Part shown: positions 7,409 through 64,000 of the stretch, one piece after another
How the letters are laid out: each line of letters begins with the position of its first letter
How positions within the stretch are numbered: the first letter of the stretch is position 1
Source: a virus
Lineage: Duplodnaviria > Heunggongvirae > Uroviricota > Caudoviricetes
DNA: 64,000 bases
Strand: one strand, 5' to 3'
Virus record (IMG/VR): IMGVR_UViG_3300009537_004349
Position numbers and translations under genes: made by a program
Notes under the pieces: model-generated
What the model saw: the letters and a program-made list of their open reading frames with translations, nothing else
The model's database searches: none
What the model was told of the DNA's origin: nothing

Positions 7409-7423
7409 TCCTCAACTCCTAAA

Positions 7424-10800: not shown

Positions 10801-13713
10801 CAGAATTGCACCTGATACATCTTGTCTAAGTTGTCTAGTTAACCATGGGGAACCATCATCTGCCGTAACATCCATAACAGATGTTGTAGCATTTCCATTG
10901 TCATCTACAATAAGACTTGACGTAGAATTGGCACTTGTGCTCAAACCAACCCTACCCTGCACAATCATGCCGTTAGTTGGTGCAGAGCTTGAACCAGAAT
11001 AAGATGCTCCTATTGCAATATTGCCTTCAACATCAAGTGTATTTACAGGATTAGATGTGGAGCCAACCATAATTTGAGAGTTAACTTGGAGATCGTTTAC
11101 AACAATGACTTTGCCAGTACCCTCAATCTGAAGTCGATTTATAGAATTAGTTTGAAACTGGATATCTCTGATAGAAGAGTTGTGCCCAATATGTAAACCA
11201 GTATCATTCAGTTCATAATTGGCTGTATAGCCGCCCGCTCCGGCCGCTGAAAATGTTTGATGTGCAGAAGCAGTATCTCCTCCACTAAATCGAGCTACAG
11301 TAACAGAGCCACTCGGAATGTCGGCAGCGCGAGAGGCAATAAACTGTCCTTGTGTAAGAGTCAGGCTGCCATTTTCTCGATTATAATAGAGGTCGTTATC
11401 ACCAGCAATCTCACCATCACCAGTAAAGAATGCTATGTATCCATCAGCACCAGTAAAACCAGAGGTTTGGGAAACATTTCCACTTCCACCGGTAACGGTT
11501 AAATCATAATCAGTGCCAGCATCGTTAGTAAAATGTACAGTGCCATCGGATTTTACCCATAATGAGCCATAGCCATCATGGGTGCGATTGAAGATATCTT
11601 GTTCTTCTAACGACAAGATGCCATTAATAGTAAGAGCTTCGTGCGGGTCTGAAGTGCCTATACCAACTAAAGTTCCTGTATTTCCGCCAGCCACTCGTAT
11701 ACGTTCTGTTTCTCCGGAGCCGCCGCCTATACCATTATCAGTTGCTATGGCTACTGAACCTCCGACCTCTCTGTTAGTTAGCATTATCAAATCTGCATCT
11801 GATAAACCGCCAGCGCTACCATATTTTAGTCCATATCTTGGTGTACCCGAACTAGGCATGAGCTGGAACCCACCCCCAGTCAATATGTGACTATCAGCAT
11901 ATATACTAACATTTGTTACTGGCGAGGCCGCACCAACAGCAAAAACTCCGTTGGTATCTAATGACCAACCATGATTCATAGTGACTGCAGAACCAGCTGC
12001 TATTCCACTATCATAACGTAAGTAAAATATATCGCCGCTTTTTAAAAACTCATAATTAGAGCCAGCGTCGGCACTTCTGTGTGCAACGCCATCGTAATAC
12101 TTGTCGAATTGTATCCAGATAGAGTCGTGAGTATAATTCAATATCTGCAATAATGGAAAGTTATCGTTAACTGTAGTAAACTGTAAATGTGGCCCATCAA
12201 CACTTGCATTATCCCCATCAAATGCCATCATAGCAGCGCCAACACTGGCATGTGGCACTGTAGTAGTTCTTACACCCACCTTATGATCTTCGGTGAATGT
12301 CATAACTATCGAGTCATCAGGATTGTTGTTAATATCAGTAGCTATATGAATTTCGTTAAATTCGCGAGTGGATAATACTACTCCGCCGTTGTTGTCTGAG
12401 GTCCATGAGTCAATAAATACAAAGCCACCACGACTGACTGTGCCGCCGTCGTCATGTACACCTAGAGCAGAACCACCACCACTTGGGGAATAGCCCACTA
12501 TATCTAAATTACCATATCCGCTAGTTGCCAACCCTCGCAATCTAAGTAATGCCACGCTATTTGTAGCATTTATAGTGTTTTCTATTTCTAGACTAGCATC
12601 TGCTCCTGCTGAACCTCCAGTGTTGATAATTTCCAAAAATGGACCGGCACCTGCAGAGGTAGAAAAATTAAAGGTGCCGCTACTTGTTATAGAGCTTGTA
12701 CCATCAAAGTATGTAACTTGCCCAGAAGTACCAGAGCCAGTAATTGTGCCAGAACTATATCCATCTAATGCTGTTCGAATTGTTTCAAATGTTTCAGTAA
12801 GATTTTCATTTAGTATGTTTCCGCCGATATTTAAGTCCTGTGTAATGAATGCATTGCCATATACCTGTAACTCACCACCAAGCTCTAAAGTACTTGTTTC
12901 TCGGTCATAGAAGAAATCATTATCACCAGCAATCACGCCAGGTGCAATAAAGAAAGTTACATAACCATCAGCACCCTCAGTGAAATCTACATTACCAGTC
13001 CCTGTGCCACCAGTGATAAGAAGATTGTAATCGGCTCCGGTGCTATCTAGGAAGTGCAAAGCTTTGTCACTAGAATCCACATAGACCTTGCCATAGCCCA
13101 CTTCGTCAAGAGGCGGGGTTGCAAGTTCGGGTAATTTCAATGCACCAGATATTTGTAGTTCGTCGCCAGCATCAAAAATTACATTTCCAGTTATTGGATC
13201 AATGGATAGAAATCTTTGTTCTCCCTGAACAAAGATTAGGCTGCCCTCGTTGCCAGTTGTTTGATCGATGCCTATACGCCAATTGAAACCAGTGCCGGTT
13301 TCGGATGCGTCAGATGTAATATGAATGCTGCCAGGACCTACATGGACTGCTTCCCAACGTTGCGTTGGGGTACCTAATTGCCCACCTAAATCTAGCTCAG
13401 GAACAATATAGCCATCAACAGTTAGTCGATGTGTAGGAGCTTCTGTACCAAGACCTAATCGATTGTTTTCTCTATCCCAATAAAAATCGTTATCGCCGCC
13501 TATGCTATTAGGCCCAGTATAGAAAGTCACATAGCCATCAGCGCCGTTGCCCAGATCAAACCCCTGCGGCCCAATACTCATAAGAATATTGCCCGAACCT
13601 AAAGGATTCCCTATGTAGAGACGTTCTGTGTCTAAGGTAAAAGCCATCTCTCCAGCATCTAAACTGGGCAAGTCTGGTTGATTACCTCTTCTAATCTGGA
13701 TTTTATTGGACAA
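7882..13713 (-). CDS. Long modular tail fibre-like protein
   Basis: 1943 aa, TTG start; N-terminal KIQIRRG..LPSLDAGEMAFTLDTERLYIG resembles Mtd/hyaluronidase-type fibre N-termini; six GADGY modules; C-terminal FTITLP..IIIKN..ITID..DTIDG fibre tip domain. Confidence 0.8.
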   Translation of the reverse strand: MSNKIQIRRGNQPDLPSLDAGEMAFTLDTERLYIGNPLGSGNILMSIGPQGFDLGNGADGYVTFYTGPNSIGGDNDFYWDRENNRLGLGTEAPTHRLTVDGYIVPELDLGGQLGTPTQRWEAVHVGPGSIHITSDASETGTGFNWRIGIDQTTGNEGSLIFVQGEQRFLSIDPITGNVIFDAGDELQISGALKLPELATPPLDEVGYGKVYVDSSDKALHFLDSTGADYNLLITGGTGTGNVDFTEGADGYVTFFIAPGVIAGDNDFFYDRETSTLELGGELQVYGNAFITQDLNIGGNILNENLTETFETIRTALDGYSSGTITGSGTSGQVTYFDGTSSITSSGTFNFSTSAGAGPFLEIINTGGSAGADASLEIENTINATNSVALLRLRGLATSGYGNLDIVGYSPSGGGSALGVHDDGGTVSRGGFVFIDSWTSDNNGGVVLSTREFNEIHIATDINNNPDDSIVMTFTEDHKVGVRTTTVPHASVGAAMMAFDGDNASVDGPHLQFTTVNDNFPLLQILNYTHDSIWIQFDKYYDGVAHRSADAGSNYEFLKSGDIFYLRYDSGIAAGSAVTMNHGWSLDTNGVFAVGAASPVTNVSIYADSHILTGGGFQLMPSSGTPRYGLKYGSAGGLSDADLIMLTNREVGGSVAIATDNGIGGGSGETERIRVAGGNTGTLVGIGTSDPHEALTINGILSLEEQDIFNRTHDGYGSLWVKSDGTVHFTNDAGTDYDLTVTGGSGNVSQTSGFTGADGYIAFFTGDGEIAGDNDLYYNRENGSLTLTQGQFIASRAADIPSGSVTVARFSGGDTASAHQTFSAAGAGGYTANYELNDTGLHIGHNSSIRDIQFQTNSINRLQIEGTGKVIVVNDLQVNSQIMVGSTSNPVNTLDVEGNIAIGASYSGSSSAPTNGMIVQGRVGLSTSANSTSSLIVDDNGNATTSVMDVTADDGSPWLTRQLRQDVSGAILVTFFDASGNFLIRNQHSTGDLQFSTADASPAHMVLTDAGSLGIGTVSPSETLDIHKGGNYQLRLTSPDEGGGFWNIAQTDQAWAAGAQRLILVPDATSSLNSVLTILNTNGHIGLMTNDPHERLTINGVISLQEQDEYNRTHDGYGSLWAKSDGKLYFTNDAGTDYDLTASGGSGNVSQTSGFTGADGYIAFFTGDGEIAGDNDLFFNRATNDLYLMSGGKLGIGTTSPSDSLDISEDGSTQLRLHRNSQVNGAGGGMRFAANNDAASPTDYVQMFGRRVDTDDGDFILQVLQSGAMGTVLRIDEAGRMGINTGLASLTESLETSGAIIIGDAAGTTNGTIRYTGTDFEGRVSGAWESLTTGGGGGDVSQTSGFTGADGYIAFWTGAGEIAGDNDLFYDRVNNRLGIGSSTPDSTLQIVNGAPGIYTLSIESVSNDVNAVFRIKDNSPGQTLNIGINFVNSANSAIGQISYLMSSDTLQFRADSTDIMWATGTGVGIGIGASSPARVLEVRDDTSNAGRLRITSTATVGGSYSGLEFFGKDGSASTFGGGLFREQSTDDITLWTSGGAVLTGQNSTGYVGIGTTVNEKLTVDGVVSLQETTSPSDTAGYGKVFVKSSDSKLYFRDDGGTEYDLTAAGGGGGDVSQTSGFTGADGYIAFFTGDGEIAGDNDLFFNRETHSLYLTGQGDSSHGRVGIGTTTPRVRGLEIARENGEETGNAQLAITSYSTNGVRSTFDLASARGTLLSPSAIQSGDLLGTLGFAGYATSFQTAISIDGVATELWSGSGEGSRLQFQTTANGETARSVKMVIDGSGDVGIGTESPHEKLTINGILSLEEQDDYDRTHDGYGSIWAKSDGKVYFTNDAGTEYDLTSGGGGGAPQYTITTVKTGAYSASFDEVVRADPSGGGFTITLPTASGSTGSTIIIKNVTSSTNIITIDTTGSDTIDGFASVQIEEGYTAWTFVSYGGTEWGRI
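10193..11490. repeat. 95-bp perfect direct repeat (10193-10287 and 11396-11490), plus an adjacent 29-bp identical block
   Basis: Direct comparison; offset 1203 bp = 401 codons; second block 10295-10323 = 11498-11526. Confidence 0.95.
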
Positions 13714-13814
13714 GATAAAGCCTCGATATTATTGAAATTTTATCGTGCCTTCATCTTAACAGCACAGGATACACGGATACCAACATATATCAAATTATTA
13801 ATATAAACGCCGCT

Positions 13815-16800
13815 TTAGAATGCTCCAGCGTCAAAATCTCGTGTATTTTCGAAGGTGTCAAGGAAATTTCCCCCATCAATATCGAATGCCGTCAGGTCTA
13901 TATTTTCTCCATTATCCCGCTTGAAGAAAATCCTGCCATTATCGATACTTACATATAATTTGCCGTAACCTAATTCTTCCTCAGGCTCTTCTTGTTCGCC
14001 TAAACTTATGACACCTTCAACAGCAAGTTTGGCATTTGGTGTATCCGTTCCTATTCCTAATCGATTGTATTCTCGGTCCCAGTATAAATCATTATCGCCT
14101 GCTATTTGATCAGGACCAGTAAAAAATGCTACATAACCATCAGCACCTTGTACAGATGTCACATCTCCTGTGCCTGTACCTGTACCTGTACCCGCTCCAA
14201 CTATTTCCCATACAGCAGAGCCTAATGCGTTATCATGGCATACATATAATTGATCCGAGATGCGATTGAACCAAAATGACCCTATGGCAAAATTAATATC
14301 CGTATCACCACTAGCATATCCATCATCTATGCTGGTAGGGTCAACACTAGCTAAAAATGTCTGCCTTTGAAATCCTGAGTGCCCACTTAAATCATATTCT
14401 AAATTAGACAAATTGCTATGCGATGACGGACTTCCAGTAGCCGTGAAAGATATAGAGCGTAAATCTTGATAGTCATCACCAATTTCAGTTGATACAATTA
14501 TAGCTTGCGGAGTATTGGTATACGCATTTCTACTTTGAAAGATAACAGCACCGATCGGCACAAATTCTGCAAAAGGCAATCCGCTTACTGAGAATTCTGT
14601 AGCTGCCGCACGAGCATCACCCTTATTACCAAATTGTGCCTGTCCCTGAATTGCTACAATTGGATTTTCAGTATCATTGGTTGCAATAATATAAACTAAT
14701 ATGTAGCTTCCATTACTAACTTCGGTAAGTTGCCAAGTAGAACCTGTAAACTCATTAAATGGCAATCTACCATTGTCACCATTGTAACCAACTGTACCAG
14801 AATATATAACTGGAAAATCATCTGCTGCTTTTTTTCGCCAAACCCCACTTGCCCCCGAACGATACAAAACAGGTATTTGTGCAATAGGAGACAAATTCTG
14901 TGGACTATCATCAGTAATGGTGTGTGCTATATCTTCGTCCCTAATTTCACCATTGCTTACCGAGAATTCTGCATGAGCAGCAGAAGAGCCGTCTCCGTCA
15001 ACTGAAAAATTCCCTAATGCCAAACCCGAAGAATATTGTGCACCGAATGATTTGTGCAGATGAAGATGAGTTGCCCAGTCCATAGTTAGACCATGACGCT
15101 CATCTGCAAAATATATATGCTTATTATTGTCAGCGTCCCAGTATATTATAGAGATGTACGCATATTCTTTCAATAGGTCTTCACTAAAAGTAGTGGTCAC
15201 ACTTAGTGTAGTGCCATCATAGTATATATAGTGTAGCCCCTCGGTATCTGTTATATCTACAGTTTCAGTGCTTGTTATAGTATATTTAACTCCCTTGATA
15301 TAAAAATCGAAGGATGTATCTACAGGGGCTATGGAAAATCTTAGAAGCGAATCATTAAAAGATATCGTACTATCAGTTCTGTTCGGAAAACCAGTAGGCT
15401 CTGAAGTTATATCGGTGTAATCTAGCCCATAACCATCTGCTGCAGCATTCAAGTACTTAACTGAGTCATTCCAAAAGGTCTTATTTTCTTGAAATGTGAT
15501 ATCCGGTGCATACCCATCTAGGGATTGACGAATTACCTGGAACGTTTCGCTTAAGTTATCATTATATATGGCTCCAGCAACATGTATATCACCATTTACA
15601 TCTAGCCTATAGGTAGGTGATGATGTTCCAATACCAATAAACCCATCTCTATCAACATAAATGCGGGTGCTAATATTGCCCGAGGTGTCTTCAGTTCTTA
15701 TTTGGAGATTGCCGCCAGCGCCAGACCAACCAGTACCAGAGCTTATCACCTGTATCGTGGCATCAATACCAGTACTAGAACTTCGACTAAAGGTTAAGTT
15801 TTCTGTTCCTAATCTACCAAAAATATTAGTCCCATCAGTACCAATAACTTTGATTGCGGTGGAATTATCACTTCCACCAGTATTGCCAAATACGGTAAGC
15901 CCATAGCTGGTATCAGGGGATGATGTACCTATTCCAACATCACCCTCTACAATTAAACCATTAGTGGGTGCAGAAGAAGTGCCTGAATAAGTTGCCCCAA
16001 TAGCAACGGCGCCCTCTATATCAAGTCTATTTACTGGGCTAGCAGTTCCTATACCAACATTACCAGTAGAACGAGCTGTGATTATTTCAGTAGAGCCAGC
16101 GTTTCCTTGCACCACAAAAGCGTTGCGCGACGAACTATTATCTTGATCGATAATCTTAAATGAATCGGCACCACCTGTAACTTTTGATTCATAGAGAAAG
16201 AATTGATTGTCAACTTGAAGTGCGCCAGTTTCTACACTACTAGTCTGCATAGAGATATTAAGACCAGTTTTATACGTACTAGTATTGTCTATTATAACAT
16301 CTACTGCAGCAATAGGATTATCGTTGCCTATACCAACTAGGCCATCTGGATCCACAACCATTTTAGTTGAAAGCGTTCCAGCATTATCAGTTTCAAGATA
16401 AAATTTACTAGAGTTATCTGCCCCATCTCGTTCAAAACCAAGGCGTCCAACTATTTGTGTTCCGCCACTATCACCAATGCTATAATCGATGTGGGCACCA
16501 AATCCATCACTAATACTAGCAGAAGTAGAACGAGCACTAATGCCCATTGTCCCTATGTGGGCATTAGTTGATGATGTACTTCTTTCTATGTATGCTGATG
16601 GATATGTAGAAGATACTACTTGTAATTGTCCTGCTACATCTAAATCTACGCTTGGACTAGTAGTACCTATACCAATACGTTGGCTAGAATCTATTATCAT
16701 AGCCATGAGATTATTGGTATAAAAATGTATTGGGGAAGAAGTATCTGTTCCTACTAAAAATCTAGATGCACTAGAAATTTGTATTTCTGCTGCATCTGTT

Positions 16801-18362
16801 CTAGCAATACCATCCACACTGCTTGCGGTATAGCCTGAGCTAAATGCGTATATTTGAAAACTATTTGAATCGCCCGAAGTTCCTATCTGAGCAAAGGCGC
16901 CACTCCCTGTATTTGTATTTTCAACGAATAACTTTACACGAGAGTTTAGAGAATCGGACAAATGGAATGGCTCACTTGGGGTTGAAGTTCTAATACCTAG
17001 ACGATTATTTCCGTCATCCCAAAAGAAATTAGCAGCATCTCCGCCAAAACTTCCGCCATTATTGTATTGTACAGCACCATCTCCGCCACCTGGAGAACCG
17101 CCGCCGCCGCCATAACCATCTGCCGCAGTTGTTAAATGATGAATTGCTTCATTCCAAAAGTTCTTATTTTCTTGGAATGTTATTTCTGGTACCCCTCCGC
17201 TGCCACCTGTGCTATTAATCGTAATCTCGTTAGCATCAGATGATAGTGAAATATTAGTTCCTGCTACCAAAGATTTAAATTGTAAATCTACGCCCGATTT
17301 GGTTCCAAAGACTCCTTCGCCGCCGCCTAGATTGCTCGCAGTATTAGATTCACCGCTAGCACCTTTAATCCATGAACCTGTAGGATGCGAATCTGTATAG
17401 CTGTACATCTGGTCTTCATCAGCAACCCAGGCTGTCCACCCCTCATCAGGTGTGGTAAAGTCCCATGATGAACCATTATACTGGGCTATCTCTTCTTCAT
17501 GTCCTGCCCATGCACCTGTAGCAGTACCACCACCGCCTGCAACTATATATCTATCTCCAGTTGTTGGAAAGCCAGGGGGAGTAAGTAGGTCCTTGTCCAG
17601 AACCGGGCTACGGAATTCTTCACCAATGATATTATCATCAACATACTGTTTTGTAGCTAAATCAGTAGAAGACACTGGATATATGCCGCCAACTGTGCCA
17701 GTAAAAGCACGAGTTCCATCTACTCTGCTATACTGTGTATGATCATCAGCATCCAAATCAGGAAGGTCGCTGTGGCTTATCTCATCGCCGCCGCCAGATG
17801 CATGCTGATCGGCGTGAATAAATGGGTCACCACCATTGGGTTGGTGTTGCTGGGCATGAATAAACTGATCCCTACCTCCGGGACGATGTTGTTCTGCGTG
17901 AAGCTCAACATGATGTTGATCTTCGAAAACATCCCGAAGCTCGGTGTGTCTAATTTTTCTTCTGATTTCTAGAGGAAATAGATTGATTTGTCCGTTAGGC
18001 TCTTCCTCTACACTTAAGACAGTACCTAATTGTTGTGATATAACATCATCATCATCTAGGTCTAAAGGGTTTTCAAACGTAATCTGGCCATTAGTGCCTA
18101 CGAAAACATCGTCATTGATGCTTGCGTTAGTTGTGTCAAAGCCTATGACTGGGCCACCTACTTTAACTATACCTGAAGCACCATTCTCGATATCCTCGCG
18201 CACGACACCAATGGCCGGCATACGGGATTCATCTCGATTGTCGGCGAGAGCAATAGTAGACAGCTTTGATTCATCATCAAAGCTGTTAATGTAGACGACG
18301 CTGCCTGCTACAAGTGTCGCCCCCGTGTTATTAAGTGCGGTAAGAATAGTACTCTTTGCCAT
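13815..18362 (-). CDS. Virion fibre-like protein with His-rich repeats and DUF2793-like domain
   Basis: 1515 aa; HAxQHxxGGxD repeats; PPGFPTTGDRYIV..GAWAGHEEEIAQY..WDFTTPDEGWTAWV is DUF2793-like; one GADGY module near C-terminus. Confidence 0.75.
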   Translation of the reverse strand: MAKSTILTALNNTGATLVAGSVVYINSFDDESKLSTIALADNRDESRMPAIGVVREDIENGASGIVKVGGPVIGFDTTNASINDDVFVGTNGQITFENPLDLDDDDVISQQLGTVLSVEEEPNGQINLFPLEIRRKIRHTELRDVFEDQHHVELHAEQHRPGGRDQFIHAQQHQPNGGDPFIHADQHASGGGDEISHSDLPDLDADDHTQYSRVDGTRAFTGTVGGIYPVSSTDLATKQYVDDNIIGEEFRSPVLDKDLLTPPGFPTTGDRYIVAGGGGTATGAWAGHEEEIAQYNGSSWDFTTPDEGWTAWVADEDQMYSYTDSHPTGSWIKGASGESNTASNLGGGEGVFGTKSGVDLQFKSLVAGTNISLSSDANEITINSTGGSGGVPEITFQENKNFWNEAIHHLTTAADGYGGGGGSPGGGDGAVQYNNGGSFGGDAANFFWDDGNNRLGIRTSTPSEPFHLSDSLNSRVKLFVENTNTGSGAFAQIGTSGDSNSFQIYAFSSGYTASSVDGIARTDAAEIQISSASRFLVGTDTSSPIHFYTNNLMAMIIDSSQRIGIGTTSPSVDLDVAGQLQVVSSTYPSAYIERSTSSTNAHIGTMGISARSTSASISDGFGAHIDYSIGDSGGTQIVGRLGFERDGADNSSKFYLETDNAGTLSTKMVVDPDGLVGIGNDNPIAAVDVIIDNTSTYKTGLNISMQTSSVETGALQVDNQFFLYESKVTGGADSFKIIDQDNSSSRNAFVVQGNAGSTEIITARSTGNVGIGTASPVNRLDIEGAVAIGATYSGTSSAPTNGLIVEGDVGIGTSSPDTSYGLTVFGNTGGSDNSTAIKVIGTDGTNIFGRLGTENLTFSRSSSTGIDATIQVISSGTGWSGAGGNLQIRTEDTSGNISTRIYVDRDGFIGIGTSSPTYRLDVNGDIHVAGAIYNDNLSETFQVIRQSLDGYAPDITFQENKTFWNDSVKYLNAAADGYGLDYTDITSEPTGFPNRTDSTISFNDSLLRFSIAPVDTSFDFYIKGVKYTITSTETVDITDTEGLHYIYYDGTTLSVTTTFSEDLLKEYAYISIIYWDADNNKHIYFADERHGLTMDWATHLHLHKSFGAQYSSGLALGNFSVDGDGSSAAHAEFSVSNGEIRDEDIAHTITDDSPQNLSPIAQIPVLYRSGASGVWRKKAADDFPVIYSGTVGYNGDNGRLPFNEFTGSTWQLTEVSNGSYILVYIIATNDTENPIVAIQGQAQFGNKGDARAAATEFSVSGLPFAEFVPIGAVIFQSRNAYTNTPQAIIVSTEIGDDYQDLRSISFTATGSPSSHSNLSNLEYDLSGHSGFQRQTFLASVDPTSIDDGYASGDTDINFAIGSFWFNRISDQLYVCHDNALGSAVWEIVGAGTGTGTGTGDVTSVQGADGYVAFFTGPDQIAGDNDLYWDREYNRLGIGTDTPNAKLAVEGVISLGEQEEPEEELGYGKLYVSIDNGRIFFKRDNGENIDLTAFDIDGGNFLDTFENTRDFDAGAF

Positions 18363-35939: not shown

Positions 35940-36192
35940 CTATATCCTCTTCGTAAGATGGGGAGAAAGGTAAGAAGATAAATAAATCAAAATGAACCTT
36001 AAGCCGTTATTCTTTACTCTTAATCTTCTGCATCCTGAACATTGAACCTTTAGGTAACATTAGATATCAGTGTCGAGATCGGTATATGTCCATAGTAGTT
36101 GCTGGGAAATCCCAACGATAATCTATTTATACTTGCTTACGCTTTCAACCCCCGCAGCTTCACTCTCACCGAAGCAAGAGTTCCACACGCGA
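35940..36192 (-). other. 253-bp non-coding interval with hairpins (candidate structured RNA or promoter region)
   Basis: No ORF over ~25 aa found by eye; ACTCTTGC-TTCG-GTGAGAGT hairpin (36162-36181), GTTGGGA-TTT-CCCAGCAAC, TATAAATA at 36124-36131. Confidence 0.35.
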
Positions 36193-50332: not shown

Positions 50333-50853
50333 TTATACACCTCGTAAGTTCGACGACAGTCAACTAATGCTGAGTGTGCGCCTATGTTCGATACACCAAA
50401 ATGTTCACATAAATGACCCAAGCCTAAGCCAGGAATCTCTGTTTTACTTACTATAGGCCACGCTATTGATAATGTATCAAGCTTTCGTCTGTGATTCCAG
50501 TTAGGCTTGATGTCAAACTCCTTCATGGCCCTTGTGATAAATCTAATATCAAAGTCTATGTTTTGACCTACTATAGCACAGTCCTTTACTAAGGAGTTAT
50601 ACTTTATCAATGCTGACTTTAACCTACCAGTGTAAGCAGCAGCGTTATCTTTGTAACCGTTAATCTTCAGCGCATCTGCATCAGCGGTTTCGATGTGAGT
50701 GGGAGATATTTTCTTCTCCCACTCTTCTATCACCGAATCAGTCACTGGGTCATATACCAAACAAGCTATCTCAATTATTTCATGCTTAGATTCATCTAAG
50801 CCGGTTGTTTCAGTATCTGTAAATGCTAACTTAAGTTCACTAAGTTTACCCAT
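50296..50853 (-). CDS. DEDDh 3'-5' exonuclease (DnaQ-like)
   Basis: DTETTGL, GQNIDFD, HSALVD. Confidence 0.92.
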   Translation of the reverse strand: MGKLSELKLAFTDTETTGLDESKHEIIEIACLVYDPVTDSVIEEWEKKISPTHIETADADALKINGYKDNAAAYTGRLKSALIKYNSLVKDCAIVGQNIDFDIRFITRAMKEFDIKPNWNHRRKLDTLSIAWPIVSKTEIPGLGLGHLCEHFGVSNIGAHSALVDCRRTYEVYKCLMNMYKKLDQ

Positions 50854-51385
50854 TCTTATCTACCCAATCTACAAAATGGTCCCAGCTACTTATCCTTTCA
50901 AATTTGCCCCGGGCCGCTGCGTTATATGGCTGGTGAAACAACAGCGGTTTTGTATCCGGGTGTAGTCCTTTCAGGTTCTTAGGGTCATCTTCTAATAGAC
51001 AATCGCCTCGAACCCTGAACTTTTCCTTTGTCAAAACCAAAGGAGGATATCTCCAGACGCGACCAAAGTAATACTTCAGCCACTCTCTTTTCTCATGACC
51101 ACTAGATGGGCAGTTTGTCCCATTACTTACAAAGCAAATATCGTGACCAAGTTTATGCAGCTTCTTAATGGATTCTACAGCACCATCAATGGGCTTAAGC
51201 CCTCTAATGAAACCCGGGGAATCCTTTATGCTTTTAAGAAGCCAGTTATTTTTTACGTACTTACCAGTCTGATTCGTTTTTATATCAGACAGTTTAACAC
51301 CTTCATTGGTATGATGGTTGTATTGAGCCAACAACTCCGAAGTGAAATCGGCACACACACCATCCATGTCTAGCAAAATTATCAT
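50846..51385 (-). CDS. 5'(3')-deoxyribonucleotidase (HAD, NT5C-like)
   Basis: DMDGVCAD, EKREWL, LLEDDPKN, QPYN. Confidence 0.9.
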   Translation of the reverse strand: MIILLDMDGVCADFTSELLAQYNHHTNEGVKLSDIKTNQTGKYVKNNWLLKSIKDSPGFIRGLKPIDGAVESIKKLHKLGHDICFVSNGTNCPSSGHEKREWLKYYFGRVWRYPPLVLTKEKFRVRGDCLLEDDPKNLKGLHPDTKPLLFHQPYNAAARGKFERISSWDHFVDWVDKNG

Positions 51386-51395
51386 AACTTCTCCT

Positions 51396-51424
51396 ATTAT
51401 ACCGACACCAAAGAAGGTTGTAAA
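51396..51424 (-). promoter_or_regulatory. sigma70-like promoter
   Basis: TTTACA-N17-TATAAT. Confidence 0.75.
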
Positions 51425-51445
51425 GTGATATTTTACTCAGTCAAA

Positions 51446-57553: not shown

Positions 57554-58120
57554 CTATAGAATCCCTGATAGCCGAAGCATCAAGTATTCTTTTTTTAATT
57601 CTTCTCTATCTGCAATCATGATGTCGTGAGGGTGAACTCCTCTGTAATCTGCGAAGAAGTGAACAATCTTGTAACACTCAGGGCAGTACCAGTTTCCTCG
57701 TTGAACTAAACTAATACATCTACATTTTTTGTTCTTACGACATCCTTTCTTAAGTAACGCTTTCAGGTCGTTTGTACTTAACCCTCTAGAGGAATACTTC
57801 TTTGGATTGGGTTGGTCGGGGAATTTACCATAGGAGCCCCAGGACCTTCTCCCTGTTGTTTTCCAGTTTCGATAGTATTGCCAATTAGCATGACTGAACA
57901 TGAATGGATATTTTTGTTTCACGCCCTTTTTAAGCCAGTTGTAAAATTGGTCGTCATACCAGTTAACCAAGTAGTACCAACACCATTCTTGTGACCAAAC
58001 ATCAAATTCAGCATGATGTCTACACAGCTGGCAAAACTTTCCGCCATGGTTTTTATCGCACCACTTAATATCAGAACCAATACCTTCGACACCCTCTGGC
58101 CAGAAGTAGTCGCTGTTCAT
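57554..58120 (-). CDS. Cys/Trp-rich hypothetical protein
   Basis: Several CxxC; ends KKEYLMLRLSGIL. Confidence 0.6.
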   Translation of the reverse strand: MNSDYFWPEGVEGIGSDIKWCDKNHGGKFCQLCRHHAEFDVWSQEWCWYYLVNWYDDQFYNWLKKGVKQKYPFMFSHANWQYYRNWKTTGRRSWGSYGKFPDQPNPKKYSSRGLSTNDLKALLKKGCRKNKKCRCISLVQRGNWYCPECYKIVHFFADYRGVHPHDIMIADREELKKEYLMLRLSGIL

Positions 58121-58473
58121 AGCATCATCCTATGCCAGCTCCCGTCATCATCAGAATACCAGGCATACTTAACGCCAAGTTTTTGCATAATAGTGATGCA
58201 GGTGCTACAGGGTTTAGAATTTCGTACAGTATCAAACTTATCCAACCTGACCACATATACAGTAGAGTTCTTTCTGTACTTAGCCGTAGTGTTGTTTAGT
58301 GCAGCTACTTCTGCGTGTTCACCATCACCAAAAGGCTGCCCTGTGCTGTGGGCATAATTGAATCCTCTTCCGACGATTTTGTTATTGGATACTACTACAG
58401 CACCAAGTCTTTGCGCAAATACACTTTTATGGGCCTGGGATATTGCCTCTATTATGAACGACTCGTCCTTCAT
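58117..58473 (-). CDS. Cytidine/dCMP deaminase-like zinc protein
   Basis: HAE and PCSTC motifs. Confidence 0.85.
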   Translation of the reverse strand: MKDESFIIEAISQAHKSVFAQRLGAVVVSNNKIVGRGFNYAHSTGQPFGDGEHAEVAALNNTTAKYRKNSTVYVVRLDKFDTVRNSKPCSTCITIMQKLGVKYAWYSDDDGSWHRMML

Positions 58474-58915
58474 TTTTTTTCGATTCCCATAGAGCTTGTA
58501 ATCTTTTAGAGGCTACATTAAGTCGTTCATCTGCCCTAAAGTAACTCAACCAGCCTGCAAAAGAATCTAATGCTTGTTTGTGTAATGGCAGCGAATTTAC
58601 ATAATCTTTGATATCCAAAGTGTACACTATGAACCCTAACAAAGACATAGCCTCACCATCTATTTGATAGAGCTTACCATGCGCAACACCCATATTCCAA
58701 TATGCCATTGCTCGTCCAGCATCATTTAGCATATTAGTCTCTAAGCCTTTTTCATACATAGATATGGCAACATCCCATCTTTGAGCATCCATAGCTTTAT
58801 CACCAGCGTTAAGATATACGTCTGGCGACTGAGCCGATAGTGCTACACAGAATATTGCTGTTACCAAGGCCATGAATATAATTGCTTTCTTTGTACGATT
58901 CCAGTTTCTTTGCAT
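58427..58915 (-). CDS. Signal-peptide/TPR-like protein
   Basis: Hydrophobic N-terminus, AISMYEKGL..AYWNMGVAH TPR pattern. Confidence 0.55.
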   Translation of the reverse strand: MQRNWNRTKKAIIFMALVTAIFCVALSAQSPDVYLNAGDKAMDAQRWDVAISMYEKGLETNMLNDAGRAMAYWNMGVAHGKLYQIDGEAMSLLGFIVYTLDIKDYVNSLPLHKQALDSFAGWLSYFRADERLNVASKRLQALWESKKNEGRVVHNRGNIPGP

Positions 58916-59133
58916 TTAAGACAACTGCGTCCTGCCCCATTGCATTTATCGCAGTAGGTCACCATCTCTCCGAAGTCTTCGGTCAGTTGAGATATTATAC
59001 TCTCTAATTCTTCTATTCTTTCTTCTAACGTTTCTATAAGGATATCCTTATCTTCTTTACTTAGGTCTCTCCATCTTGGCTGAGATTCATTTGAGTTAAG
59101 TTTGCCCCTCACCCAGTCCATCAGTTTCGACAT
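58861..59133 (-). CDS. Coiled-coil protein with Zn finger
   Basis: CDKCNGAG..CLKCKETG. Confidence 0.55.
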   Translation of the reverse strand: MSKLMDWVRGKLNSNESQPRWRDLSKEDKDILIETLEERIEELESIISQLTEDFGEMVTYCDKCNGAGRSCLKCKETGIVQRKQLYSWPW

Positions 59134-59545
59134 CTCTCAGCTCCTCGCAGGATGTATCCCAGCCGCCCTTTGTATATCGGGCGATTGTGCCTTTTAAGGG
59201 AACCTCTACACTTCTAGAAATCCCTCTTCCTAAAAGCCTATTAGAGTAAACAGGGCGAACCCCGCTTGCACAACTGATAGTTACGTGTGGCAACCCGCCG
59301 TCTAATCTATCTATACCTGCAACTACTACGGCTTGTCCCTTATCATCCTCAGCATACCCTGTTACGGACATAGAGACTTCTTTTCCACATTCTGGAATAA
59401 GCTTAGCCTCCTGCTCTTCGCTGGGGTTAAATACGAGGGTTACGTGCTCAGCGTGTACATTACTGTGTATTGGCGGAAAGTGTGATGCCAGTCTTGCTAC
59501 GCTTGGCATATCTAACTTTACCGCCCAATAAATCGTATCACTCAT
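59096..59545 (-). CDS. 2H phosphodiesterase (CPDase-like)
   Basis: Two HxT motifs: HAEHVTLVF and PHVTIS, followed by PVYSN as in tRNA-ligase CPDase-like domains. Confidence 0.75.
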   Translation of the reverse strand: MSDTIYWAVKLDMPSVARLASHFPPIHSNVHAEHVTLVFNPSEEQEAKLIPECGKEVSMSVTGYAEDDKGQAVVVAGIDRLDGGLPHVTISCASGVRPVYSNRLLGRGISRSVEVPLKGTIARYTKGGWDTSCEELRDVETDGLGEGQT

Positions 59546-59546
59546 G

Positions 59547-59903
59547 TTAATAACTCGATGCTAGATTATCCCAATCGGTCATTCGAACAGCTTCCATCAT
59601 TGCGTTTCGTGCAGACTTCATACTCTCCCCATGAGCAATGACAATTAAGTCAGTGCCGTTTCGTGGAGTGTCCTCGCTGACAAACCAGCCAGCAGCATAG
59701 TACTCTGGATATTTGCCAATGAAACCTAAAGCTGATTCGTTGTGAACTGTGCATGCTCGGTCTCCAAAATGGAACTTAACTTGCTCCTTCACCATATCTA
59801 AGACAACATCGTTTAAGAGGCTATCTCTTTCAGCCTTAGGAAACTGGCCAATGAATTGATTGGTCTTTCCAACCAAACTGAAATTCAATCTTACTTGTCG
59901 CAT
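59547..59903 (-). CDS. Hypothetical protein
   Basis: ORF with GAGG SD. Confidence 0.65.
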   Translation of the reverse strand: MRQVRLNFSLVGKTNQFIGQFPKAERDSLLNDVVLDMVKEQVKFHFGDRACTVHNESALGFIGKYPEYYAAGWFVSEDTPRNGTDLIVIAHGESMKSARNAMMEAVRMTDWDNLASSY

Positions 59904-59910
59904 GTTTTCC

Positions 59911-60129
59911 TCACTTAAGTCTGTATGTTATACGACCTTTAGTAAGGTCATATGGAGACATGTCTAGTTTAACTCTATCACCCTGAAGAATACTAATGTT
60001 GTTCTTCCTAATTTTACCAGACGGATGGCAGATTATCTCATGTCCATTGTCCAGCTTTACCCTAAACTTTGCATCCTTAAGGGCCTCTAGTACTTCGCCT
60101 TCTGTCTCAATTACGTCTGCTTTACTCAT
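59911..60129 (-). CDS. infA: Translation initiation factor IF-1
   Basis: [60 protein letters not shown]. Confidence 0.97.
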
Positions 60130-60395
60130 GGTTTAGTTTTTGCTCTCCGAGTTTTCCTTTTTCTTTTTACCTTGGTTTGTTTAGGATTGTAATAAAACAA
60201 ATCCTTTGTTGTGTACTTAGATACATATGTATTTGTGTACTCTACCTTCTTTATATCATTACACTCCAGAAGAGATAAGATTTTATCTATAGTTTCTGTG
60301 TTGTGCTTCTTGGATAATTCTATTCTAATCCTCGTTGCTGTTTTGTATCCATAGCGTCTTATCTCCTCTCTGGTTTTCTCAACCAGATCGTTCAT
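60126..60395 (-). CDS. Basic hypothetical protein translationally coupled to infA
   Basis: ATGA overlap at 60126-60129; GGGAG SD. Confidence 0.65.
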
Positions 60396-60402
60396 TATTT
60401 TC

Positions 60403-60583
60403 TCCCAGGATTAATGTTGCATATTCAATACATTAAAATCATTTATAGTTATATAAGCTGGGGTCTCTCGACCATAACATAATCAAATATTCCCTCTCTA
60501 TTAGGGAAACCATATCCTATTTTTCAACACCAAAATTTTAGTAATCATTTATAATTAAAATCTGGGCAACATTAATCCTGGGA
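60403..60583. repeat. 18-bp perfect inverted repeat enclosing a 145-bp AT-rich non-coding core
   Basis: TCCCAGGATTAATGTTGC (60403-60420) and GCAACATTAATCCTGGGA (60566-60583); internal 11-bp direct repeat AATCATTTATA at 60437 and 60543. Confidence 0.95.
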
Positions 60584-60591
60584 AAAAACAA

Positions 60592-60864
60592 TTACTCTTT
60601 GGAGTTTAGGACTCTCACACTTCGTTTCATATCTCGAACATTTTTGCCAGTGAACCATAAGTGATGGCGATAAGCCTGTATCGTTTCAGACCTTCCATCT
60701 ATTACGGCACGACAATGGATAAGGCAATCAGAGTCAGTACTATCGAATCCGCTTACCTCGGTAACTATCATGGTCAGGTTATCTGGCCACGGATAGTCTG
60801 CAAGTTTGCCTTTCTTGGAAAACTTAACAATGTCTCCTGGTTTGATTCTGGGCCGTCTGTTCAT
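60592..60864 (-). CDS. Small SH3/KOW-like hypothetical protein
   Basis: IKPGDIVKF. Confidence 0.5.
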   Translation of the reverse strand: MNRRPRIKPGDIVKFSKKGKLADYPWPDNLTMIVTEVSGFDSTDSDCLIHCRAVIDGRSETIQAYRHHLWFTGKNVRDMKRSVRVLNSKE

Positions 60865-60867
60865 AAC

Positions 60868-61440
60868 TCATCTCCTAGTTTTGTGATGGTCTACCGCCTT
60901 ATTCTTTTTCTTCTTCATTATCTCTTTGATTTCCTCAAAAGAGAATGGCCTATAGTCGTTACAATCTACGCCCACATCCATCTGTAAAGAATTAGGGTCA
61001 TCTGGTAGAGACCCATGAGAATGTCCATATAGGTTCCAAGAGCCGTGGTGTCTCTTGGGCCAGACCTTACAAGCATAGTGGTGCAAGTAGATGCCCTGGT
61101 GCTTGTTAATCTCCCTATCGTGGACTTCGATGTAAGCTGCGTCTTTCACCCATTCGAAATATAGTTGTAGTTCCTCATGCTTGCGGAACATATTATCATG
61201 ATTTCCTAGAATCAGATACTTCTTTCCGTTAAGCTGCTTCAGAATCTCGTGCGTTCTCCCAGGGCTTCCAAATGAAACGTCACCCAATATATACGCACTA
61301 TCTTCTGGCTTGACACATTCGTTAAACCTCTCTATCAACGTCTTGTTCATTTCAAAGGCGTTCTCAAACTGGCGGGTCTTATGCTTGTGAATCATATTGC
61401 CGTGCCAGTAATGTGGGTCAGAGGTAAACCAATCAGTCAT
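60868..61440 (-). CDS. Calcineurin-like metallophosphoesterase
   Basis: SDPH, LGD, GNHD, HHY, GHSH, VGVD. Confidence 0.92.
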   Translation of the reverse strand: MTDWFTSDPHYWHGNMIHKHKTRQFENAFEMNKTLIERFNECVKPEDSAYILGDVSFGSPGRTHEILKQLNGKKYLILGNHDNMFRKHEELQLYFEWVKDAAYIEVHDREINKHQGIYLHHYACKVWPKRHHGSWNLYGHSHGSLPDDPNSLQMDVGVDCNDYRPFSFEEIKEIMKKKKNKAVDHHKTRR

Positions 61441-61912
61441 CTAAGTTGTTCAATTTAAACTCCACTTCAGCCAGGTCTTTATTCAACTCTCGGATTCGCT
61501 TTTTATCCTTTTTGGCTAAGAGGTGTTCTCCTTGTTTCCTGTGTATTTCGAGCATTATATTTTGGTTTTCAATCTTTTCTTTCAAACCATTAAATTGCTC
61601 GGTCAATTTATCTTCTAAGCTAAGTTTCGTAGCCCCTTCATTAGCTTCCTGTTTTGCCCTTTCAGCCTTATCTATAGGAAAAAGCTTTTGATAGTCACTA
61701 TCTGTAAGCATAAATCTGACAATCTCTTCCGTCTGAATGAGTATATCAGCAGCATCTCTAGGACTAATACTGTCATGGTGACGGTAAAAATACTCCCTAA
61801 ATGCCAGGTTTCTTTGCTTCTGTGTGCCACTTAGCATCGTCGCATATATAGCCCAAACGAAACATTCATTCTCGCCCGTTTTGTCATATATTATTTCGTA
61901 GTCTATTAGCAT
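61433..61912 (-). CDS. Hypothetical protein with coiled coil
   Basis: ORF in tiled run. Confidence 0.6.
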   Translation of the reverse strand: MLIDYEIIYDKTGENECFVWAIYATMLSGTQKQRNLAFREYFYRHHDSISPRDAADILIQTEEIVRFMLTDSDYQKLFPIDKAERAKQEANEGATKLSLEDKLTEQFNGLKEKIENQNIMLEIHRKQGEHLLAKKDKKRIRELNKDLAEVEFKLNNLDD

Positions 61913-61927
61913 CTTTTACTTTCGTTC

Positions 61928-62012
61928 TGGTGCCCGAGGAGGGATTCGAACCCCCATGCCCGAAGGCCGCTGGGTTTGAGCCAACTGCGTCTGCCAATTC
62001 CGCCACCCGGGC
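61928..62012 (-). tRNA. tRNA-Leu(CAA), encoded CCA
   Basis: GCCCGGG acceptor, GTTGG-CTCAAAC-CCAGC anticodon arm, long variable arm, GGTTCGAATCC, ACCA; 85 nt. Confidence 0.95.
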
Positions 62013-62369
62013 TTACAGCTTCAGCTTATCAACAGCATCCTGAAGCGTTCTTATTAGATTATAGAGGCTCCAGTAGTAGTTGTCAAGCTTTAATCTCTTA
62101 GCATCTTCCATGCTGGTTAATGCGTTTCGATAGTGCAATTCGTCCATCTTAACGTCCATTTCCTCAGCAATTTTGCGTAGTTGCTCTAAGTTTTTAACTC
62201 GGTCTTTATAGATATGTTGTTTTGGAGCGAGGGCTGCTCGAATCTTTTTAAGCACCTCGTTTTTGGAACGGCAAGGCTTCCCTGTGCCTTCCGCAGAAAT
62301 ATACTCTTTGGCTGCCTGTAGTGCTTCAAACATCACAGCCTCATTGGGATTTGCGCTTTTCTTGCTCAT
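62013..62369 (-). CDS. Hypothetical protein
   Basis: 118-aa ORF whose stop abuts the tRNA. Confidence 0.65.
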   Translation of the reverse strand: MSKKSANPNEAVMFEALQAAKEYISAEGTGKPCRSKNEVLKKIRAALAPKQHIYKDRVKNLEQLRKIAEEMDVKMDELHYRNALTSMEDAKRLKLDNYYWSLYNLIRTLQDAVDKLKL

Positions 62370-62601
62370 CTTTATTTACCAAGTATTGTTGTAGCTTTCT
62401 CGATTCATGTTCTAGCACAAGCAGCTCATTATCTTTAGCCAACATTTTGCCAAGCTTTATGTTCAACTCTATCATCTTACAAACACTATTGCCTACCTTT
62501 AAAACTTGACGGTAGCAATCTGACACTATGCCATCATGCAACATACTCAAGTCCCTCCAGGGCATCCCATAGTTCGTCCGCCCAGTCATCTGGCACACCA
62601 A
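62341..62601 (-). CDS. Hypothetical protein
   Basis: ORF in tiled run. Confidence 0.45.
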   Translation of the reverse strand: MVCQMTGRTNYGMPWRDLSMLHDGIVSDCYRQVLKVGNSVCKMIELNIKLGKMLAKDNELLVLEHESRKLQQYLVNKDEQEKRKSQ

Positions 62602-62710
62602 TCATGGCGGCCTCAATAGAGTCGTTTTGAATTTCAGTAAGAAGTTCTTTAAAACTCAACTTTTTAGTAAGTAGTTCCACATATAGCGCTTGAATTATAT
62701 CTCTATTCAT
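62534..62710 (-). CDS. Small acidic protein, paralog of 62914..63108
   Basis: Likely start MNRDII at 62710; LYVELLTKKL..DDWADELWD. Confidence 0.55.
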   Translation of the reverse strand: MNRDIIQALYVELLTKKLSFKELLTEIQNDSIEAAMIGVPDDWADELWDALEGLEYVA

Positions 62711-62909
62711 AATTTCCTGGACCGTAAGTGTGCCCGACATTTTCAGAAACAGGAATTATGCTCTTGCGATTTTTAGGATGCCAATAATAGTAAAGGGCAC
62801 TTATATTGTAGTTAAACATCCCAGGCTCAAATCTTTGAGATTTTGATAGTCTGAGAATAGCTCCATTCTTAAGACGAGCTATATAAGAATTTTTCACTAT
62901 ATCTATCAC
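62703..62909 (-). CDS. Hypothetical protein
   Basis: 68-aa ORF. Confidence 0.45.
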   Translation of the reverse strand: MIDIVKNSYIARLKNGAILRLSKSQRFEPGMFNYNISALYYYWHPKNRKSIIPVSENVGHTYGPGNYE

Positions 62910-62913
62910 TGTT

Positions 62914-63108
62914 TCACTCTATAAAATCCCAGTCGACTACTATATCATACAACGAATCAATAAAATCATCTGCTTCGGGAATAACAGCTCTATCGTGCAA
63001 TCTCTTGCAATCATAATTTGCACGTTTGAAATCGTCAAAAAATTCTATTGCAGGAATTTTTTCTTTCAAAAGCTCCCTATACAATATATCTATCATGTGC
63101 TTTTTCAT
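62914..63108 (-). CDS. Small acidic protein, paralog of 62534..62710
   Basis: LYRELLKEKI..DDFIDSLYD. Confidence 0.55.
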   Translation of the reverse strand: MKKHMIDILYRELLKEKIPAIEFFDDFKRANYDCKRLHDRAVIPEADDFIDSLYDIVVDWDFIE

Positions 63109-63123
63109 TCATTCTTTCCATTC

Positions 63124-63198
63124 TGGTAGACCTTAGTGGATTTGAACCACTGGCCTCTTCCGTGTCAAGGAAGCGCTCTTCCCCTGAGCTAAAGGTCT
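63124..63198 (-). tRNA. tRNA-Val(GAC), encoded CCA
   Basis: AGACCTT/AAGGTCT acceptor, CTTCC-TTGACAC-GGAAG, GGTTCAAATCC, ACCA. Confidence 0.94.
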
Positions 63199-63208
63199 GT
63201 TATCGATT

Positions 63209-63283
63209 TGGTGGGCCGTACAGGAATCGAACCTGTGACCCCCGGGCTTCAACCGGGCGCTCTACCAACTGAGCTAACGGCCC
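63209..63283 (-). tRNA. tRNA-Phe(GAA), encoded CCA, G37
   Basis: GGGCCGT/ACGGCCC acceptor, CCCGG-TTGAAGC-CCGGG, GGTTCGATTCC, ACCA. Confidence 0.93.
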
Positions 63284-63308
63284 ATAGGTAAAGTCGCTAA
63301 AGTCGGAC

Positions 63309-63497
63309 TCACTCATTGTTTCTCTCCCTGTCTTCTTTGATTTTAGCCTCCACAAATTTATTGGAGACTTTAACTATACCTCGTGCCAACTTATCAGCAT
63401 AAGGCTCTAAAAACTTCTTAACGAAAGATGGGAATTTATCGATTGCCCCATCCACTATTTCCTTTACGTCTTTCTCTAATTCACCAATCGCAGACAT
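63309..63497 (-). CDS. Hypothetical protein
   Basis: 62-aa ORF. Confidence 0.5.
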   Translation of the reverse strand: MSAIGELEKDVKEIVDGAIDKFPSFVKKFLEPYADKLARGIVKVSNKFVEAKIKEDRERNNE

Positions 63498-63771
63498 GTA
63501 GCCAGTCTATCCTTCCTGCTGCTTGACGAAATCTGCTTGCATCAGCCCAAGTTGGAAACTCAATGTGCGCAGTAGTTGACTTACCACCACGCTTACTTCT
63601 TACAAGAGTGCTTCGCCAGCCCCACTTGCGAGTCCACCAAGGTAGCTTCTCAGATTCAGGATACGTGCTGCTATCACTAACCTTACCGTGATACTGCTCA
63701 ATCAAACCCTCTACCTTGTTCCTATGTGCGCCGTTACTACTGTCATACCTAACAGATACATCGTGTGACAT
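63481..63771 (-). CDS. Hypothetical protein
   Basis: GAGG SD, 96 aa. Confidence 0.65.
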   Translation of the reverse strand: MSHDVSVRYDSSNGAHRNKVEGLIEQYHGKVSDSSTYPESEKLPWWTRKWGWRSTLVRSKRGGKSTTAHIEFPTWADASRFRQAAGRIDWLHVCDW

Positions 63772-63780
63772 ACTCGCCTC

Positions 63781-63975
63781 CTATACGTCTGGCTTTATAT
63801 CTTCAATCTTAGGCAGTGTCTCTTTGTACTTTTTTACCGTGCGCTTTTGGCCATCTTTATCTTTTTTCTGCCAGGTATTGAATTCCCTTAGTAGGCGAAA
63901 CACGTTATTTGATTTCACCTCTTCGTTATTCTCTTTGAGCCACTCTTGAAATAGAATGTCTTTAACTACCGCCAA
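63781..63975 (-). CDS. Hypothetical protein
   Basis: 64-aa ORF. Confidence 0.5.
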   Translation of the reverse strand: MAVVKDILFQEWLKENNEEVKSNNVFRLLREFNTWQKKDKDGQKRTVKKYKETLPKIEDIKPDV

Positions 63976-64000
63976 AGCTCTCTCTTTCTTATCAGGAAAG

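Follow-up and report, generated by a model that had tools for sequence, protein, structure and literature searches.

Why should a phage operon whose genes otherwise lie end to end be interrupted, shortly before the gene for translation initiation factor IF-1, by a long inverted repeat enclosing non-coding DNA? The question is raised by the IMG/VR virus record IMGVR_UViG_3300009537_004349 (Caudoviricetes), of which a stretch of 64,000 nucleotides (nt), termed here the window, was analyzed. The window comes from a very large phage, has a GC content of 42% and is coding on one strand throughout; its cargo includes GroEL, ligases, a helicase, IF-1 and three tRNAs. The contig to which its proteins belong is listed with a length of 291,701 bp. 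In the operon block concerned, an open reading frame (ORF) of 90 amino acids (aa) is followed, beyond the repeat, by a second ORF of 89 aa and then by infA, the IF-1 gene. The remaining gene junctions of the block have gaps of -8 to +7 nt. The stop of the 89-aa ORF overlaps the start of infA by ATGA, as a first-pass annotation of the window had pointed out, and infA is taken to be translationally coupled to the 89-aa gene. As described below, the arms of the repeat form the closing helix of a structured RNA domain, the existence of which as a conserved entity we consider highly probable. The domain is previously undescribed and self-contained, measures ~150-240 nt and belongs to a family of jumbo phages, in which it interrupts an operon of otherwise close-set genes.

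In the window itself, a repeat search returned arms at 60394-60420 and 60566-60592, 27 nt each and 93% complementary, with 145 nt (27% GC) between them. The first-pass annotation had described perfect 18-bp arms around 145 AT-rich, non-coding bp; these were confirmed, and the helix is even longer, at 27 pairs. The perfect 18-mer occurs twice in the window, once on each strand and both times at the arms, versus 0.02 occurrences expected by chance, and a count of two was reached in none of 100 shuffles. In the sense of the mRNA (- strand), both arm mismatches become G.U wobbles, giving 27 pairs in the closing helix, designated P1. Ungapped extension of P1 covers 29 positions with a single A.G mismatch and sets the stop codon of the 90-aa ORF opposite the start codon of the 89-aa gene. 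The Shine-Dalgarno (SD) sequence of the latter gene is located in the 3' arm, again as annotated earlier, and its ATG lies within the same strand of P1 (Table 1). The 231-nt RNA folds with -64.1 kcal/mol (z = -5.55 versus shuffles), and P1 by itself accounts for -41.3 kcal/mol.

Relatives of this locus were reached in metagenome assemblies by way of proteins homologous to the 90-aa protein or to the phosphoesterase encoded next to it. With duplicates merged (L004 = L005 = L006; L009 = L010), ten distinct elements were obtained, namely those of the window and of loci L001, L008, L013, L014, L004, L007, L009, L011 and L015. Locus L012, a copy of L011, stops at the 126-aa gene, ahead of the element, and one metagenome scan yielded only L006 and L007. 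Among GenBank phages no close DNA relatives were found, just two weak matches to infA; neither the two small genes (89 and 90 aa) nor alignments of them retrieved a relative from IMG/VR, and none was found among the GTDB genomes. Look-ups of the proteins of the window as exact sequences likewise gave no entry. The phosphoesterase of L001 is 93% identical to that of the window.

In all ten loci, the order of features is phosphoesterase, 90-aa family gene and a non-coding gap of 150-240 nt. The arrangement downstream of the gap varies, and includes the 89-aa gene with IF-1, the 89-aa gene with a Macro-domain gene and IF-1 (in L007 with an extra small ORF ahead of the Macro-domain gene), or a Macro-domain gene directly. 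Wherever downstream DNA or a gene map is available, which is the case for nine elements, an IF-1 gene follows at a distance of one to four genes. A further locus, L003 (6001-7221), has neither the 90-aa gene nor the RNA element, and infA is missing as well; its phosphoesterase and winged-helix genes overlap by ATGA. L003 shows the locus with both modules naturally deleted, or as it was before their insertion. A 118-aa gene directly follows the winged-helix gene of L003.

The closing helix is present in all ten elements, with different sequences in different phages. Its inner five pairs read GUUGC/GCAAC, GUUGC/GCGAC, GUCGC/GCGAC, AUCGC/GCGAU, GCCGC/GCGGU or GUCAC/GUGGC. For the covariation test, the alignment was trimmed to the 12 inner (top) pairs of P1. 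Changes on both sides (compensatory) were observed in nine of the 12 pairs, 91.7% of the alignment cells paired, as compared with 27-47% when the partner strand was slid, and the observed covariation was matched by none of 500 shuffles. The full helices contain 14 G.U versus 2 A.C pairs, an asymmetry indicative of pairing as RNA, on the mRNA-sense strand. The covariation and the G.U excess together therefore establish P1 as a helix that forms in the mRNA and is kept by selection, and not as the termini of a miniature inverted-repeat transposable element (MITE) or a part of a replication origin.

The 5' strand of P1 begins 0-7 nt past the upstream stop codon in every one of the ten elements. 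Its 3' strand includes the SD in six (window, L001, L008, L013, L014 and L004). In these, P1 comprises 27 contiguous pairs in the window, 24-29 in L001, L008 and L013, 22 bp in L004 and ~23 pairs, broken by mismatches, in L014. In L007, L009, L011 and L015, P1 measures 10-14 bp and ends 3-75 nt ahead of the SD. The consensus fold of the window clade retains the 27 P1 pairs and the inner hairpin. Burial of the SD and AUG by P1 is real in the window clade and has been maintained there. In L011 (4382-4610), a strong intrinsic terminator is located between the element and the Macro-domain gene with IF-1.

Within P1, the individual elements contain one to three inner hairpins (15 in total), which have stems of 3-8 bp and no T-loop. 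The stems and loops of these hairpins are unrelated, the loops being GNRA, UUCG, CUUG or longer. Comparison of close relatives shows covariation of the stems (among them GGUC/GACC, GGCC/GGCC, GGCU/AGCC and GGC/GCC) together with dissimilar loops. AU is located ahead of all 25 helices (10 P1 and 15 hairpins), the closing pair is G:C in 24 of them, and CCAG follows 24 (CCGG the other one), usually succeeded by N-U. The most over-represented words in the elements are CCCAG and CCCCAG, then N-U. P1 obeys the flank rule when viewed from the interior of the domain, in that its 5' strand is followed by CCAG and its 3' strand preceded by AU. The base before the CCA is a paired C, like the G-1:C73 of tRNA-His, rather than a free purine discriminator, and AU-rich trailers follow each CCA. 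Outside the elements, the pattern AU-G(helix)C-CCAG was detected as five weak occurrences in ~290 kb of two-strand sequence, and the AU/CCAG motif was not found as a general signal in the window.

Two other features of the loop that had been annotated earlier, a pair of TATAAATGATT copies and a small TTCCCT/AGGGAA hairpin, are all present. The small hairpin occurs only in the window, L001 and L008 and is without AU/CCAG flanks. In RNA form (UUCCCU/AGGGAA) it resembles the SD-masking part of P1 (UUUCCC:GGGAGA), so that either half might act as a competitor of the 5' arm or of the SD.

The domain does not correspond to a catalogued RNA. A cmscan of 58000-64000 against Rfam 15, with E up to 1, returned tRNAs and chance matches elsewhere and none on the element; matches to YrlA and CRISPR families were located elsewhere, below threshold, and were discarded. 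ARAGORN detected no tRNA in the element. Several other candidate identities were rejected. Mini-ORFs starting at conserved AUGs have no conserved frame or length, since the frame across CCCAG shifts with hairpin length and some stops fall in the loop. Translational bypassing between matching take-off and landing codons fits the window (GAG) and fails in L013. In an integron attC site, GTTGC/GCAAC would be expected at the outer helix end, whereas here it is at the inner end. A type III toxin-antitoxin or retron non-coding RNA would be accompanied by a ToxN-like or reverse transcriptase gene, neither of which is present, and the gene order is wrong. Finally, a CCAG:CUGG pseudoknot is conserved in the window clade only.

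Table 1. Positions of the closing helix, its flanks, the loop features and the adjoining genes in the window.
Feature	Positions	Strand	Remarks
90-aa gene	60592..60864	-	ORF; KOW/SH3-like; stop TAA 60594-60592 opens P1 5' strand
P1 5' strand	60566..60594	-	27 paired nt (60566-60592), extended over the stop codon to 60594
CCAG	60562..60565	-	directly 3' of P1 5' strand; CCA-like flank, invariant in 10/10 elements
TATAAATGATT copy 1	60543..60553	-	linker 1; not conserved in relatives
Small hairpin TTCCCT/AGGGAA	60490..60508	-	window, L001 and L008 only; no AU/CCAG flanks
Acceptor-end-like unit	60458..60475	-	AU 60475-60474, hairpin GGUC-GAGA-GACC 60473-60462, CCAG 60461-60458
TATAAATGATT copy 2	60437..60447	-	last linker; not conserved in relatives
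AU	60421..60422	-	directly 5' of P1 3' strand; predicted cleavage U60421/G60420
P1 3' strand	60392..60420	-	holds SD GGGAG 60406-60402 and ATG 60395-60393 of the 89-aa gene
89-aa gene	60126..60395	-	ORF; winged helix, basic tail; first gene under P1
infA (IF-1)	59911..60129	-	Pfam PF01176 eIF-1a, E 2e-24

What, then, might read these flanks? At the level of sequence, the AU and the G...C-closed helix match, and the CCA resembles, what bacterial RNase P recognizes in its substrates. For the bacterial enzyme, A(-2)U(-1) with G(+1) is the optimum (PMC10731613), and the 3' RCCA of a tRNA base-pairs with L15 in the RNA subunit (PMC10731613, PMC11143913). Its substrates extend beyond tRNAs to hairpins of operon mRNAs (PMC10731613) and to the 4.5S and phage C4 RNAs, in which an extended helix replaces the T-loop (PMC10731613, PMC11143913, PMC12710915). 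Model hairpins are cut down to 3 bp, provided that a 3' RCCA is present (PMC12710915), and in tRNA-His a single-stranded CCA is carried on an 8-bp acceptor stem (PMC11143913). The external guide sequence (EGS) principle is reviewed together with phage and mRNA substrates (PMC11143913). A substrate would be expected to have a 12-bp acceptor/T-stem stack with a T-loop, or else an extended helix; P1, with 10-29 bp, fits the latter type, whereas the inner hairpins (3-8 bp, no T-loop) fit neither. The pattern suggests that tRNA-processing enzymes act on the domain.

The tRNA genes of the window provide a local comparison. All three encode CCA, as CCAG in two cases, and one has the leader UAU/G. The gene for tRNA-Leu(CAA) (61928-62012, - strand) abuts the stop codon of ORF 62013-62369 and encodes CCA, then G; those for tRNA-Val and tRNA-Phe (63124-63283) likewise encode CCA. 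Since these tRNAs sit in the mRNA without spacers, tRNA processing must cut operon transcripts.

We favour a mechanism that combines stop-start coupling by P1 with RNase P-type processing, which we regard as plausible though short of probable. P1 would mask the junction of the flanking cistrons and also couple them, the domain forming a structured RNA insert between the two. On the polycistronic mRNA, the 89-aa/IF-1 pair would not be independently initiated. A ribosome terminating at the stop codon inside the helix would unwind the lower part of P1, thereby freeing the SD and AUG, and the extended P1 would in this manner restore stop-start coupling across the 196-nt insert. This proposal draws on the size of the ribosome footprint and on known cases of structure-mediated coupling. 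Long-range translational coupling by RNA structure is well established for the coat and replicase genes of phage MS2 (the Min Jou interaction) and for rpmI-rplT of E. coli. There, as here, the downstream ribosome-binding site pairs with an upstream segment that is unwound by ribosomes, and in the window the stop codon even faces the AUG. In contrast to those systems, the helix described here loops out a 145-nt structured insert between the cistrons, across which coupling would have to operate.

In the second part of the proposed mechanism, P1, at its inner end, would mimic the acceptor end of a tRNA, as would each inner hairpin, with A(-2)U(-1), a closing G:C pair and a single-stranded CCA, as in tRNA-His. 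RNase P, either of the host or phage-encoded, would cut between the U and the G, at U60421/G60420 and U60474/G60473; for the cut at P1, the guide would be built in, with the 5' strand taking the part of an external guide sequence. The transcript would thereby be divided at the element, and small hairpins ending in CCA would be set free. The role of such cutting could be the segmentation and stabilization of the mRNA, control of the IF-1 operon, or the supply of CCA-end decoys.

The likeness to known non-tRNA substrates of RNase P lies in the A(-2)U(-1), in the helix that starts with G:C and in the CCA after the 3' strand. P1 resembles the C4 and 4.5S RNAs in being an extended helix without a T-loop, and an EGS/target pair in that the CCA belongs to one segment and the predicted cut to another (PMC11143913). 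Unlike such substrates, the domain has its CCA next to a paired C, its inner hairpins are limited to 3-8 bp and several units lie within one closing helix; cleavage itself is a prediction.

Several points weigh against this combined mechanism. Hairpins of 3-8 bp without a T-loop are expected to be poor substrates of RNase P in vivo, and a CCA placed directly after a paired C departs from the usual unpaired purine discriminator followed by CCA. Following a cut by RNase P, the 27-bp P1 would stay paired in trans, such that the SD would not be freed by cleavage alone. Moreover, masking and coupling cannot be the ancestral function of the domain, because the SD is unmasked in four of the ten elements and a terminator follows that of L011. 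The motif could equally be a binding site for a protein, for example the KOW-like protein encoded by the always-adjacent 90-aa gene. The placement of the domain right after a stop codon may reflect genome compaction only, as tRNA-Leu also abuts a stop.

A more far-reaching interpretation, which we consider possible though doubtful, is that the elements constitute a novel class of phage RNA, in which acceptor-end mimics (AU/G-helix-C-CCA) are arrayed within a closing helix that works like a built-in EGS and would be cut by RNase P, possibly an enzyme of the phage itself. The cut would then switch on or segment the IF-1 operon, or would release CCA-ended minihelices. Under this interpretation, the minihelices could serve as decoys for host factors that attack the 3' ends of tRNAs, such as nucleotidyltransferase or pyrophosphokinase toxins, and the adjacent KOW-like protein may be a partner of the RNA.

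Two further comparisons help to place the domain. In the t-elements of plant mitochondria, and in the mitochondrial tRNA-punctuation model, tRNA-like structures act as processing signals in mRNAs. The present elements likewise place tRNA-like structures, for tRNA-processing enzymes, between coding regions; the t-elements keep the acceptor/T-arm shape, whereas here only the features of the acceptor end (AU, G:C, CCA) are found, and this in a phage. With riboswitches the elements share the use of one domain with different downstream platforms, the SD being inside P1 in six elements and a terminator following P1 in L011. They differ from riboswitches in that no conserved core resembling a ligand pocket is evident and the linkers vary, besides being long and rich in A and U. 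A P1 of 27 bp is, moreover, too stable for switching, and no Rfam match was obtained.

Should the favoured mechanism prove correct, giant phages that carry translation genes (IF-1, ribosome recycling factor, bS21, tRNAs) would regulate them by structured RNAs of their own, and the recognition code of tRNA ends (AU, G:C, CCA) would be reused as punctuation inside mRNAs. The elements would provide a concrete set of non-tRNA substrates of RNase P, show the external-guide-sequence principle at work in nature and form a counterpart, in a bacterial virus, to organellar tRNA punctuation. Leaving the RNase P component aside, a well-supported new conserved RNA motif stands, in which a 27-bp helix juxtaposes stop and start over a 145-nt insert, an arrangement that can be tested with reporters.

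The main rival explanation, in our estimation a fairly unlikely one, dispenses with RNase P altogether. In this case, the units of helix and CCAG would bind a phage protein, for purposes of autoregulation or as part of an RNA-protein particle. The binder would most likely be the KOW-like 90-aa protein encoded directly upstream, with the winged-helix protein from downstream as the second choice. All ten loci have both the 90-aa gene and the element, L003 has neither, and the number of inner hairpins varies from one to three, as would that of repeated binding sites. The co-occurrence may nevertheless equal plain synteny, as IF-1 co-occurs equally well, and the exact AU and CCA flanks are not predicted by protein binding. 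The 90-aa protein family has 30 members. The AlphaFold model of the window protein has a predicted local distance difference test score (pLDDT) of 87, and its best structural matches (Foldseek was also run) are the KOW domains of NusG/Spt5, at Z 8.0-8.5 and a root-mean-square deviation of 1.6-2.5, values that may mean a common fold only, since unrelated models typically reach Z 7-8. KOW/SH3-like barrels are frequent among ribosomal proteins that bind RNA, the family has basic and aromatic residues that are invariant, and some members add a C-terminal zinc ribbon, all of which would suit a putative binder of RNA; the fold matches are nonetheless generic (Z <=8.5). The zinc ribbon (CxxC...CxxxxC) was observed at the C-terminus of the 126-aa upstream family protein of L011, and likewise in P0134 and P0149. 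For the 89-aa protein, the model (H-S-H-H-S-S, pLDDT 83) shows an unadorned winged helix, to which a basic tail is attached. A structure search with this model returned generic winged-helix domains and no significant match, and weak sequence matches in the PDB to the PP7 coat protein were set aside as spurious, given the plain winged-helix model.

The first-pass annotation had proposed a temporal switch of the kind known from phage T4, an explanation which we now regard as quite unlikely. Genes e, soc and I-TevI of T4 are reportedly subject to early/late control by SD-sequestering hairpins, in work said to go back to McPheeters et al. in 1986 and Gott et al. in 1988. By this logic, read-through RNA would be silent, and late transcripts starting at a loop promoter (TATAAATG), recognized with the aid of a gp55-like sigma factor, would lack the 5' arm and have a free SD. 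The part of the proposal that stood is that an RNA helix buries the SD and AUG upstream of IF-1: as in the T4 genes, a helix on the long upstream transcript conceals the downstream SD and start codon. A conserved internal late promoter did not emerge. The loop is AT-rich (27% GC), it holds two TATAAATGATT copies with 7/8 matches to the T4 late consensus, and the last linker is constrained to 35-45 nt, roughly the size of a promoter. Both copies are, however, already disrupted in the closest relatives, L001 and L008, and the motif is neither enriched nor located before genes in the window. Across the window, TATAAATA was counted three times on the - strand, versus 3.3 expected, and TATAAATG six times on the coding strand, versus 2.4 expected, two of these being the loop copies; the latter word is not systematically found before genes. 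Promoters of the sigma-70 type fared similarly. Good matches occur in the linkers of L009 (TGTATAAT), L013 (TACACA-17-TATAAT) and L008 (TTTACA-19-TATATT), but a consensus scan found none in the loop of the window, and across the ten elements no site was present at a conserved position, the matches being scattered over unrelated positions. The invariant AU/CCAG flanks and the covarying inner hairpins are likewise not accounted for by such a switch, and a terminator follows the L011 element. In T4, moreover, the hairpins are local and the TATAAATA late promoter lies between their arms, whereas in the window 145 nt separate the arms, relatives do not share the promoter-like words, and a larger conserved RNA domain is closed by the helix.

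Cleavage by RNase III, which would cut the 27-bp duplex, excise the loop, separate the mRNAs and activate translation of the 89-aa/IF-1 pair in the manner of the lambda N leader or the T7 intergenic sites, is decidedly improbable. The duplex is long enough, on a threshold of ~20 bp of near-perfect pairing, in the window (27 contiguous pairs), in L001, L008 and L013 (24-29) and in L004 (22). In L007, L009, L011 and L015, however, P1 reaches only 10-14 bp, so that this cannot be the conserved function; the flank motif and the inner hairpins would be left unexplained.

The two remaining alternatives, both of which had been raised in the first-pass annotation, have next to no probability. A MITE-like mobile insertion would account for terminal inverted repeats around AT-rich non-coding DNA and for the absence of the element from L003, but a search of the 64-kb window gave no second copy of the arms, no target-site duplication or flanking direct repeat is present, the same locus is occupied in ten diverged phages with arms that covary instead of staying constant, the G.U asymmetry points to RNA, and L003, which is also without the whole 90-aa gene, is hence not an empty site. 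A replication origin or a DNA-level cruciform would fit an AT-rich stretch with short repeated words inside an inverted repeat, but there is no change of GC skew at the site, the excess of G.U over A.C pairs (14 versus 2) is strand-asymmetric and the conserved flanks are strand-specific.

A number of minor observations were made in the relatives and elsewhere in the window. A ribosome recycling factor gene, the Macro-domain gene beside IF-1, and RtcB were encountered in relatives (L004 4473-4997 and 7230-7917; L007 2951-3678; L003 1481-2653), and across the phage family translation and RNA-repair genes cluster around the locus of the element. A clean sigma-70-like promoter, TTTACA-17-TATAAT, with an SD is located at 51386-51445 (- strand), before ORF 50846-51385; the phage thus appears, from this site, to use host-type promoters at least before that ORF. 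The sole intergenic TATAAATA on the coding strand (36131; region 36100-36192, - strand) follows a gene for a Dda-like helicase and adjoins a GC-rich hairpin and a GGGATTTCCCAG palindrome; the region 36100-36192 could be either a promoter or a terminator region. The three giant ORFs (2185, 1943 and 1515 aa) of 851-18362 (- strand) contain an endosialidase-chaperone domain, an Mtd_N domain and DUF2793, and probably encode tail fibres rather than subunits of an RNA polymerase.

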